From Nostoc sp. DedSLP01 (GTDB lineage: Bacteria; Cyanobacteriota; Cyanobacteriia; Cyanobacteriales; Nostocaceae): a stretch of DNA of 64,000 nucleotides. Made by a program: the position numbers. Each line of letters begins with the position of its first letter. Position 1 is the stretch's first letter. The stretch lies in NCBI GenBank assembly GCA_034530875.2, contig JAVRCJ020000002.1, positions 160,001 through 224,000 on the forward strand, written 5' to 3'. Below, in pieces: positions 15,001 to 18,000 of the stretch.

Positions 15001-18000
15001 CTGACATTATTTCGCTAGCTAAAACCTACCAACTAGCGGGAATTATCGCCACTAACACTACTATTAGTCGTGACGGACTCAAAACCCAAATAATAGAGCA
15101 AACTGGCAAATCACCACAGTTAGAAGCTGGCGGAATTAGCGGCGAACCATTGCGCGATCGCTCCACTGAAGTAATTCGTTTTATTTGGCGGCAAACTCAA
15201 GGACAAATTCCCATTATCGGCGTTGGCGGCATTTTTTCTTCACAAGATGCTTGGGAAAAAATTATTGCTGGTGCTAGCTTGATTCAGGTTTATACCGGCT
15301 GGATTTATGAAGGCCCAATGATGGTACGCCGGATTCTTAAAGGTTTGCTTTCCCATTTAGAAGCAAGCGGATTAAATTCCATCAGCGAAGCTGTTGGTTT
15401 AGAAGTAAAAAGTCAAAAGTAAAGCTTTGAAGTTCTTTACTTTTGCCTTGTATCCTGATTATTCTTCCAGTGGGAAAAATTCTTTAGTTTTTTCCGAGTA
15501 TGACCAAGCAATACCATCGGGGTCTCTGCTGCGACTCCACTCTGGAAATTCTGGGTCATTGCGTCGTTTATAAACTGTACTGGAATAAACATTTAGCCGC
15601 TTGGCTAGTTCGGATTGAATTAGAGAGCCAAATACTAATTGTTTTTCTAGCGTTTTTGTAGTTTCGTTATGGGTTGGTTCTGGGAGCGATTCAGTTTCCT
15701 CGTCGGGTTCTTCCTCCTGTTCTATTGATGGTGGTGCTAAAAACGATAGCGGAGTTTTAGAAATTGGTTGAGCTGAAAGTTGCTTGACAGGTTCGCTACT
15801 ATCAAGAATGTTGCCCAGAATGCTGGCAGTTATGAAGTAATAGTACGGAGTTTCGCTGTCATAATTTAGGATACTAGCGCCAAATTCTTGAGCTTTGGTA
15901 TCTAAGTAGCGTTTTGCAGTTGCTCCGGGAAAATTGCCTCGGATTGCCAAATCCATTGGCGTCAGTTTTCCCTGATTTTCCCGAACTAATTGATGAAAAA
16001 TGGGGTTAACTCGCACAGTCCACTGTTGCCATTGATATTCCTGCCAAATCTTGAAGGCAATTACCAGCACAATTCCTGCCAGTAAAATTCTCCACGTGGC
16101 AACCAGGAAAATAATCAAAAACGAGAGGGGCAAAAGTATAACGAGAAAAGCCTTACCGTTACCTTCTATGGTTTGTTCACTCATGCCTCATTTTTGCCAA
16201 GTGAATTTTGGAAAATAATTACTATTATATTGGCAAAAATTTGGACATTTTTTGTATAGTTTGGCAAATTTTCCGGCAAAAATGTTTTTTGGTGGGTCTA
16301 AGAGATTGGAAAATCGTACAAATTGAAGACTATAACTGAGAAATCTCGCAAAAATTGTTTGCTAAAGTGTAGCGATGCCTGCGGCGAGCTACACCTACGC
16401 ACCCGACCAAAGTAGTACAAATAAATTAGTTTGTGAAACACTTGACATCTTGTACTACATAAACTACATTAATAATACAAGCAGATGTTCATCAAGGAGT
16501 TAGCTTTCCTTAGTAGCGGATAGCTCAAATAACAGAGTGCCCACATAAAGTTTCCAACTTGCCTGTAAAGGCCGATATATCGAGGGTTATCGCATACTAA
16601 AACCCCCTCGATTTAACTTCTGGAGATGCAGGTGAAAATCCTGCTCCGCTACACCAAATAATTTTAGATTTAATCCAAAATCTAAAATTTAAAATCTAAA
16701 ATCCAAAATTTTCATGTGGTGGATAGCTCAGCGGATAGAGCGCCTAAATATCCTTGTTCGCTCCTTGCCTGCAAAGGCCGAAGAATTGAGGGTTATCGCC
16801 TGCCAAGCGGGAGGTCGCAGGTTCAAATCCTGCTCCACTACACCAAATTGAGCAAAGTAGTTAGGAGTGAAGAGTTAGGAGTTGAAAGTTTTCAATTCAA
16901 AAATTTTTAACTCAAAACTCATAATTCCTAACTTCTAACTCCTAACTTTAATATGTGGCGGGTAGCTCAGCGGTAGAGCGCTAAACACCCTTGTTCACCC
17001 CTTGCCTGTAAAGGCCGACGAATTAGGGTTATCGATTAGGGTTCGAGAGGTCGCAGGTTCAATTCCTGCTCCGCCACCTTTCATTTTTGCCTGCAAAGGC
17101 CGGGAGATGAAGAGATGAATTACAATTTCTTTACTAAAAAGAAAACAACTACACCACAAAATCAGCCTATCCCCGGACGCGAAGCCGAGATGATTCAAGG
17201 ACGTTCCGGTGGTTGGATGTTTGATGCTGGCATTTGGAAGATGCTGCGCCGTTGTCTTTTGATTGGCACGGCAAAAAGCACTTACTATGCTGGCAAACAC
17301 GAATTAACTGAAGATTTTGTCGCAGTAGTTAAAGAAGCTGTTGCTGAAAATCCCAGTCGCGTGGCAGAAGAAATTCTTTATGCTAGCGATGGACGCGCCA
17401 TTAATAACAGTGCGCCGATTTTGGCTTTAGTTTTGCTGTCAATGGGTGAAACGCCAGAAGCAAAAAAAGCCTTTGGTGAAATTTTCCCCCAAGTTGTCCG
17501 CACAGGTAGCCATTTTTATGAATGGTTAAACTACACCAAATCTCTGCGGGGATTTGGCAAGGTGGTGCGCGAAGCTGGTAAAACTTGGCTATCACGAGAA
17601 GATGTCAAAGGTTTAGCTTATCAACTGTTGAAATATCAACAGCGCCAAGGATTTACCCACCGGGATGCATTGCGGTTGTTCCATGTCAAACCGCCTACAG
17701 AAAATCACCGTCAACTATTTGAGTGGGTTGTGAGAGGCTGGGATGAATTACCAGCAGACATCCCTTCAGAAGCGTTGGCGCAGATTTGGTGGTATGAATG
17801 GCTCAAGCGGAACCCTAACCAAACCCATGAAGCTATTTTGCAAGGACGCCTAACTCACGAAATGGCTGCACCTGTGGGCAAAATGGACAAAGCTGCTTGG
17901 CAGTTGCTATTTCAGGAAATGCCGATAGGTGCGATGCTGCGTAACCTGGGTTCTTTGACTGAACTCGGTGTGTTGCGAACTGACGAGGGCGCCAACTTGC

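Follow-up and report, generated by a model that had tools for sequence, protein, structure and literature searches.

What controls the transcription of Ro60 and its Y RNAs in cyanobacteria? In bacteria, the function of these molecules has been established in one or two species, in part owing to the silence of the genes. We analysed a 64,000-nt stretch of the 8.6-Mb genome of Nostoc sp. DedSLP01 (G000:C2:160001-224000, called the window below). A preliminary description had placed tandem operators of the translation-stress repressor TrcR at the Ro60/Y-RNA promoter of this window and at every other RNA-mimic and RNA-repair promoter of the genome, and had combined all of them into a single translation-stress regulon.

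Passages of PMC10272220 describe TrcR of Anabaena PCC 7120 as a ribbon-helix-helix (RHH) repressor that footprints an 8-bp consensus near the -10 hexamer, i.e. at trcR, trn, rtcB, all8564, alr1537, alr3301, and alr8077, and the level of which drops under chloramphenicol. According to passages of PMC8421152, two 9-nt repeats that are 2-3 nt apart over the -10 hexamer and the start suffice for regulation, also when transplanted, while one repeat is insufficient. The searched text and supplements of both papers do not mention Ro60, TROVE, or Y RNA. In agreement with the preliminary description, no paper linking TrcR with Ro60 was found in a literature search that covered few subscription journals. 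The strain encodes one TrcR, with a weak match to RHH_4, and its trcR gene (C15:27161) is preceded by the exact published autoregulatory 18-mer. Some other genomes (G014, G137, G204, G247, and G370) gave several TrcR-like matches, five or six.

The promoter upstream of the Y-like RNAs and Ro60

The following features were assigned in the window:

15459-16184 (-): divergent gene, 241 aa, without a Pfam match; its start is ~270 nt from the boxes
16411-16419: weaker single box (8.5 bits) upstream of the -35 hexamer, not kept in relatives
16442-16447 (+): -35 hexamer TTGACA, the alignment anchor, found in 77 of 80 close loci
16451-16459: TrcR-type box 1, in the promoter spacer (12.1 bits)
16460-16468: TrcR-type box 2, over the -10 hexamer; a perfect reverse 8-mer in most relatives
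16465-16470 (+): -10 hexamer TACATT, 17 nt past the -35 hexamer, assigned by consensus match only
16471-16479: TrcR-type box 3, 2 nt past box 2, covering the putative transcription start
16513-16656 (+): Y-like RNA 1, a cloverleaf in tRNA order with encoded CCA and a degenerate Ro60 motif (fold, z -4.5, and alignment)
16716-16845 (+): Y-like RNA 2, with a GNCGAAG motif in an extended anticodon arm and encoded CCA (fold and alignment)
16955-17078 (+): Y-like RNA 3 (fold and alignment)
17115-18716 (+): Ro60/Rsr, 533 aa (Pfam TROVE and vWA_Ro60)
18766-18873 (+): Y-like RNA 4, 3' of Ro60, without a D arm and without a box of its own (fold and alignment)

A consensus promoter, TTGACA-17-TACATT (16442-16470), drives three Y-like RNAs and Ro60. 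Between TTGACA and the first RNA, three boxes (TGTACTACA, TAAACTACA, and AATAATACA, with periods of 9 and 11) span the spacer, the -10 hexamer, and the putative start, and each of them matches the reverse complement of TGTAGTAT at all positions but one. Boxes 2 and 3, two repeats 2 nt apart over TACATT and the putative start, have the geometry of the TrcR regulon. The tandem boxes of the preliminary description are thus present at this promoter; the span that it had given, 16446..16475, does hold boxes, but its end cuts box 3, which extends to 16479. The divergent gene is probably not a target of these boxes.

The Ro60 protein is 90-96% identical to Ro60 of Nostoc and allied genomes. The four Y-like units have in common a stem with the Ro60-binding motif GNCGAAN0-1G described in PMC4201824, which is exact in units 2 and 4 and degenerate in units 1 and 3. 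The predicted folds of the units have tRNA order with open acceptor stems. Eight RNA runs had a word share of 5-8%, and the four that were aligned consisted of contigs, some of them tens of kb in length, which show neither start, strand, nor level of transcription.

Selectivity of the boxes and the other promoters of the genome

The published degenerate pattern of 2021 had 26 intergenic matches, compared with 20-41 in 15 shuffled genomes, and is therefore not enriched. The rule of at most one mismatch per box, to which the window site conforms and by which the preliminary description had counted tandem sites, yielded 25 clusters. The range in 12 shuffles was 10-26, so that enrichment is weak or absent; as implemented here, it also misses trcR's own operator and the tandem on contig C12. 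A stricter tier with a summed mismatch number of at most one was enriched (9 versus 0-3). Because loose box definitions were no better than chance, a matrix was trained on 34 boxes, all from promoters of published targets, and pairs were scored at a period of 8-12 in either orientation. The training boxes came from trn and all8564 of PCC 7120 (plasmid record), from seven distinct trcR variants, and from the rtcB, trn, HNH, ABC, and slipin sites of the genome itself. The intergenic regions were defined from crude ORF calls (6182).

At 20 bits or more, the matrix found 13 intergenic peaks, compared with 0-6 in nine shuffles, so that the window site (21.7 bits) is by itself only moderately above chance; trcR's own site has 22.8 bits. 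Seven of the top 14 peaks are training targets and seven are untrained, namely the SRL RNA (rank 3, see below), kptA (rank 8), the window site (rank 11), the second Ro60 operon (rank 14), and three others. The matrix misses the promoter of the alr3301-like gene in genome G401 (5.1 bits). At rank 4 stands a pair (C3:293189, L283) upstream of a putative YqiJ-like/647-aa membrane operon; the pair is kept in two of ten orthologs. The rank-12 pair (C15:143552, L370), identical to boxes 1 and 2 of the window, adjoins the 3' side of a lipoprotein-like gene ~1.4 kb upstream of sigA. It was meant as a negative control, and the control failed, because seven of ten orthologous regions likewise reach at least 16 bits. 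In the published mutant table, sigA of PCC 7120 does not change in the trcR mutant.

Box-like sequences were present at all five other coordinates of the preliminary description (C12:3970, C12:12179, C13:172200, C64:8151, and C8:2697). At C12:3970 this is a single upstream box, and the tandem lies at about C12:3992-4020. The protein encoded there, 477 aa, had been regarded as a "hidden" Ro60, and it is indeed a true, distant Ro60, as judged by a profile match to human Ro60 (E 1e-16), hhalign (97%), and a predicted toroid and vWA fold (pLDDT 94; TM 0.64-0.70 to Ro60 structures). The operon also contains a tmRNA-end-like RNA, tRNA-like units, and an L7/L12 paralog. Its promoter (L001:3960-4020) equals the footprinted trn promoter of PCC 7120 (delta plasmid) at 32 of 35 consecutive positions, which suggests that it may have been captured from a tRNA array. 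Several tRNA-like units of the operon (L001:4098-6950, C12) have in common a repeated GTGCCCT..AAGCTTACATAC / CAACTTGCACG stem that also flanks the SRL RNA and is perhaps a binding stem for the second Ro60 class.

The "SRL mimic" RNA (about C12:12208-12412) carries a sarcin-ricin motif whose only other occurrence was in the 23S gene. It was recovered with its tandem box, as proposed before, and additionally contains a near-complete GTPase-associated centre (GAC) of 23S rRNA, as a 56-nt match (E 5e-13); thus, both docking sites of elongation factors are joined in one RNA. No description of an SRL/GAC mimic RNA was found in the above-mentioned literature search. The RNA precedes a 277-aa gene and a ThiF-like gene and is 5 kb from the L7/L12 paralog. 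Identity of the 277-aa gene with alr3301 (834 nt) was rejected because its protein is unrelated to the alr3301-like one of G401. Neither the second Ro60 operon nor the SRL+GAC RNA nor kptA appears in the searched text and supplements of PMC10272220 and PMC8421152. No Ro60/Y-RNA or second Ro60 gene was recognised among the rows listed from the searched PCC 7120 tables, where a search by gene length covered the first three rows per length. G401, which has the PCC 7120 trn primer site, is without all three proteins behind the new promoters.

It is unlikely, yet worth weighing, that in this strain TrcR acts at some of the three new promoters and not at others, with, for example, the degenerate C12 site or the sporadic kptA site being non-functional. 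The C12 tandem has 2+2+1 mismatches in this genome; nevertheless, it comprises four boxes and reaches 19.9 bits. At kptA, just 6 of 30 loci have a box inside a range of 400 nt, in line with the preliminary view that this site is not conserved, but this is more than the background of 9 in 2039.

The claim that every RNA-repair or RNA-mimic promoter carries operators is false: the best pairs at rtcA (8.7-10.9 bits), thpR (3.4 bits), and the real tmRNA gene (4.0 bits) do not represent tandem boxes. In the published PCC 7120 table, deletion of trcR does not derepress rtcA (log2FC 0.33, padj 0.11), and the thpR-like alr1166 and smpB likewise show no response. Searches of the strain for the RNA_ligase family and for Hen1 gave no match; the positive control for Hen1 was also without a match. 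The slipin gene, proposed as a new target, is already published: Table 1 of PMC10272220 lists alr0739-alr0740, which are 72-fold and 42-fold up, with an EMSA on the alr0739 promoter. The C13 slipin is the ortholog of alr0740 as judged by sequence and gene lengths, being 81-82% identical to slipins behind a 193-aa gene, with lengths as in alr0739/alr0740. Hence slipin, like rtcB and the tRNA array, is a known TrcR target. It is preceded by two tRNA genes together with a small structured unit (L002:4434-4660), and copies of its promoter leader seem to lie on both sides of an inserted nucleotidyltransferase-like gene. Contig C64 (L003:3047-5977) contains, ~2 kb from rtcB, a CRISPR array and a 645-aa gene, which presumably resembles Cas12k. 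Target prediction from motifs can fail: of two motif-only candidates of 2021, the published mutant data show all4315 2.4-fold up and alr1056 not derepressed (log2FC -0.14, at very low counts).

Conservation and a second promoter type

The 80-locus sets consist of near kin (90-97% protein identity), so that the following counts overstate independence. The Ro60 promoter aligned on the -35 hexamer and the box in 77 of 80 close loci, with an anchor that contains the box; of the three misses, the first is a contig end, the second a locus from which the Y RNAs are lost, and the third unexplained. Unanchored scoring gave at least 16 bits for 78 of the 80 loci, compared with 28 of 1203 background windows. 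The box columns mostly have 1.4-2.0 bits, and the neighbouring spacer columns go down to 0.3-1.0. Each box in part also serves as the -10 hexamer. The second Ro60 promoter was found in 72 of 80 loci, again with a box-containing anchor, and 70 of these 72 have at least 18 bits; in five of the eight misses, the upstream DNA is shorter than 2.2 kb. The consensus of this promoter is, as in the operator of trcR itself, an inverted pair. Among the 61 copies of the SRL+GAC RNA in the second-Ro60 flanks, 55 have a pair directly upstream, over a TAGTAT -10 hexamer as in trn, though the flanks differ.

The class-wide set is better evidence for conservation. Ro60 was matched in 72 of 401 genomes, and 49 loci were examined, i.e. 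the best 30 and 19 picked for diversity (the remainder is mostly one genus or fragments). A box pair of at least 16 bits is present in 18 of the 49 loci, from six families, and all four combinations of box orientation occur. The earlier statement that five of five Ro60-bearing relatives keep the box thus applies to close kin, but not to the class. Outside Nostocales and a few further families, the majority of Ro60 loci have another promoter. TrcR was matched in 17 of the 18 box-bearing genomes and is encoded in 30 of the 31 genomes with a boxless Ro60 locus. The TrcR regulon is a lineage-specific subset of RNA-repair genes.

These data also bear on the view that the boxes are conserved promoter sequence only, i.e. 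AT-rich -10 variants (TAGTAT/TACATT) inherited with the cassette, and that TrcR exerts no appreciable repression. It would fit that box 2 contains -10 hexamer sequence, that the loose patterns are not enriched, that close relatives share ancestry, and that one published motif-only candidate failed. However, boxes 1 and 3 are conserved though they lie outside the sigma hexamers, the box orientation at one and the same position differs from family to family, and the SRL RNA keeps its pair while the upstream flank is replaced; we regard this view as improbable. It is highly improbable that the sites are operators to which NtcA, LexA, or a paralog of TrcR binds, with nitrogen status or DNA damage instead of translation stress as the signal. 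In favour of this, passages of PMC7790460 describe a response of the rsr operon of Salmonella to DNA damage via tRNA cleavage, and some cyanobacteria have several TrcR-like genes. On the other hand, TrcR was matched only once in this strain, the sites are recognised by a matrix that derives from TrcR targets, and NtcA and LexA were rejected as regulators of the Ro60 promoters, as the consensus sequences of NtcA and Anabaena LexA occur in 0 of 77 and 0 of 72 promoters.

In 23 of the 31 boxless loci, we found a different promoter motif, TCGCYTRRGGGAAG-N10-TATTCT (GGGGAAG-N10-TATTCT). It lies within 1.5 kb in 21 loci, compared with 17 of 599 background windows, a count that is partly circular because the motif was defined by eye on the same loci; in two more it precedes a co-operonic rtcB. 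A gene for an EAD4-NACHT-HEAT protein (E<1e-30) is present in 28 of the 31 boxless and 3 of the 18 box-bearing genomes, which include kin that are not independent; it was not found in the Nostoc strain studied here. The second motif lies on the divergent strand in 18 of 30 EAD4 loci, in front of rtcB (6), Y RNA/Ro60 (8), or another gene (4). Together with the EAD4-NACHT-HEAT-NCC-H gene, it largely replaces the TrcR boxes in several families. This gene (L319:3619-6495, minus strand, and L338-L367) is divergent from rtcB or Y-RNA/Ro60 and has a GGGGAATYCCCC-like palindrome near its start. In three Nostocaceae genomes (L351, L353, and L354), EAD4-NACHT faces a 122-126-aa gene and a longer gene with the second motif. 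Still another promoter serves four of nine class-wide SRL RNA loci.

The EAD4-NACHT-HEAT gene is a candidate regulator of the second promoter type. A structural model of EAD4, the N-terminal domain, weakly resembles winged-helix domains (best Z 7.5, rmsd 3.2, 102 aligned; CRP and ETS domains, Z 6-7), values within the range of common arrangements, and Foldseek gave no match at E<=0.001. EAD4 is treated as an adaptor domain in passages of PMC7159879; a third regulator, if true, would imply a DNA-binding role instead.

A proposed TrcR-controlled RNA repair and decoy arm and its relation to known systems

Taken together, the conserved and well-placed boxes make it likely that the promoters of Ro60/Y-RNA, of the second Ro60 operon, and of the SRL+GAC RNA are new members of the known TrcR regulon. 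To this extent the proposal of one translation-stress regulon stands; "every" promoter and a new slipin target do not. Binding, repression, and the sufficiency of two repeats are described in the published passages for other promoters; for the three new ones we infer binding and induction, as well as what the RNAs do.

Each 9-mer would be a near-palindromic site for one RHH dimer, as suggested by the fold class and the free box orientation. Two or three dimers 8-12 bp apart would cover the -10 hexamer and the start, and a strong sigma-70 promoter would thereby be blocked. Under impaired elongation, the level of TrcR falls, as passages on PCC 7120 show, and transcription of the Y-like RNA/Ro60 operon, the second Ro60 operon, and the SRL+GAC RNA would then set in along with that of rtcB and the tRNA array, as an RNA repair or decoy arm of the regulon. 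Judging from the operator sequences, the Ro60/Y-like RNAs and the SRL+GAC RNA are thus probably switched on when translation fails.

Tentatively, and with somewhat less than even confidence, we propose a silent decoy kit, composed of tRNA-like Y RNAs with CCA ends, the SRL-GAC RNA, an extra L7/L12, and two Ro60 classes, which would be released with RtcB upon translation stress and wired either to TrcR or to the EAD4-NACHT-HEAT STAND protein. This joint reading includes that EAD4 would be a DNA-binding winged helix and the protein a sigma-70 counterpart of RtcR. The operator predicts how the Ro60/Y RNAs of Nostoc can be induced, i.e. by trcR deletion or chloramphenicol, and it would link them to translation stress, along with an rRNA-mimic RNA that has apparently not been described before.

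The Y-like RNAs are similar to YrlA RNAs (Rfam RF02553; passages of PMC4201824 and bioRxiv 10.1101/312249) in their position next to Ro60, their D and T arms, and the GNCGAAN0-1G motif, exact in two of the four units. In contrast to YrlA with its closed acceptor, the window units have ordinary tRNA order with free acceptor ends, units 1 and 2 encode CCA, and the Ro60 motif lies inside the anticodon arm; Rfam YrlA has no match at the gathering score over the units. Alternatively, as in the published reading of YrlA, neighbouring units may be spanned by the long acceptor stem of a circularly permuted RNA.

Compared with the published parts of the TrcR (All0854) regulon of Anabaena PCC 7120, the strain has an ortholog with an identical autoregulatory motif, the same 8-9-bp box in tandem over the -10 hexamer and the start, and as common targets rtcB, the tRNA array, an HNH nuclease, an ABC transporter of the size of alr1554, and slipin. 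The rsr-yrlBA-rtcBA operon of Salmonella, which is under RtcR control (passages of PMC7790460 and PMC4201824), likewise has Ro60 and Y RNAs that are silent during normal growth and are co-regulated with RtcB upon RNA damage. There, a sigma-54 CARF activator acts on one operon that includes rtcA, whereas the motifs predict for Nostoc a labile RHH repressor on scattered sigma-70 promoters, with rtcA excluded. RtcB and Ro60/Y RNA would thus have come under one control independently, by RtcR in Salmonella and by TrcR in cyanobacteria.
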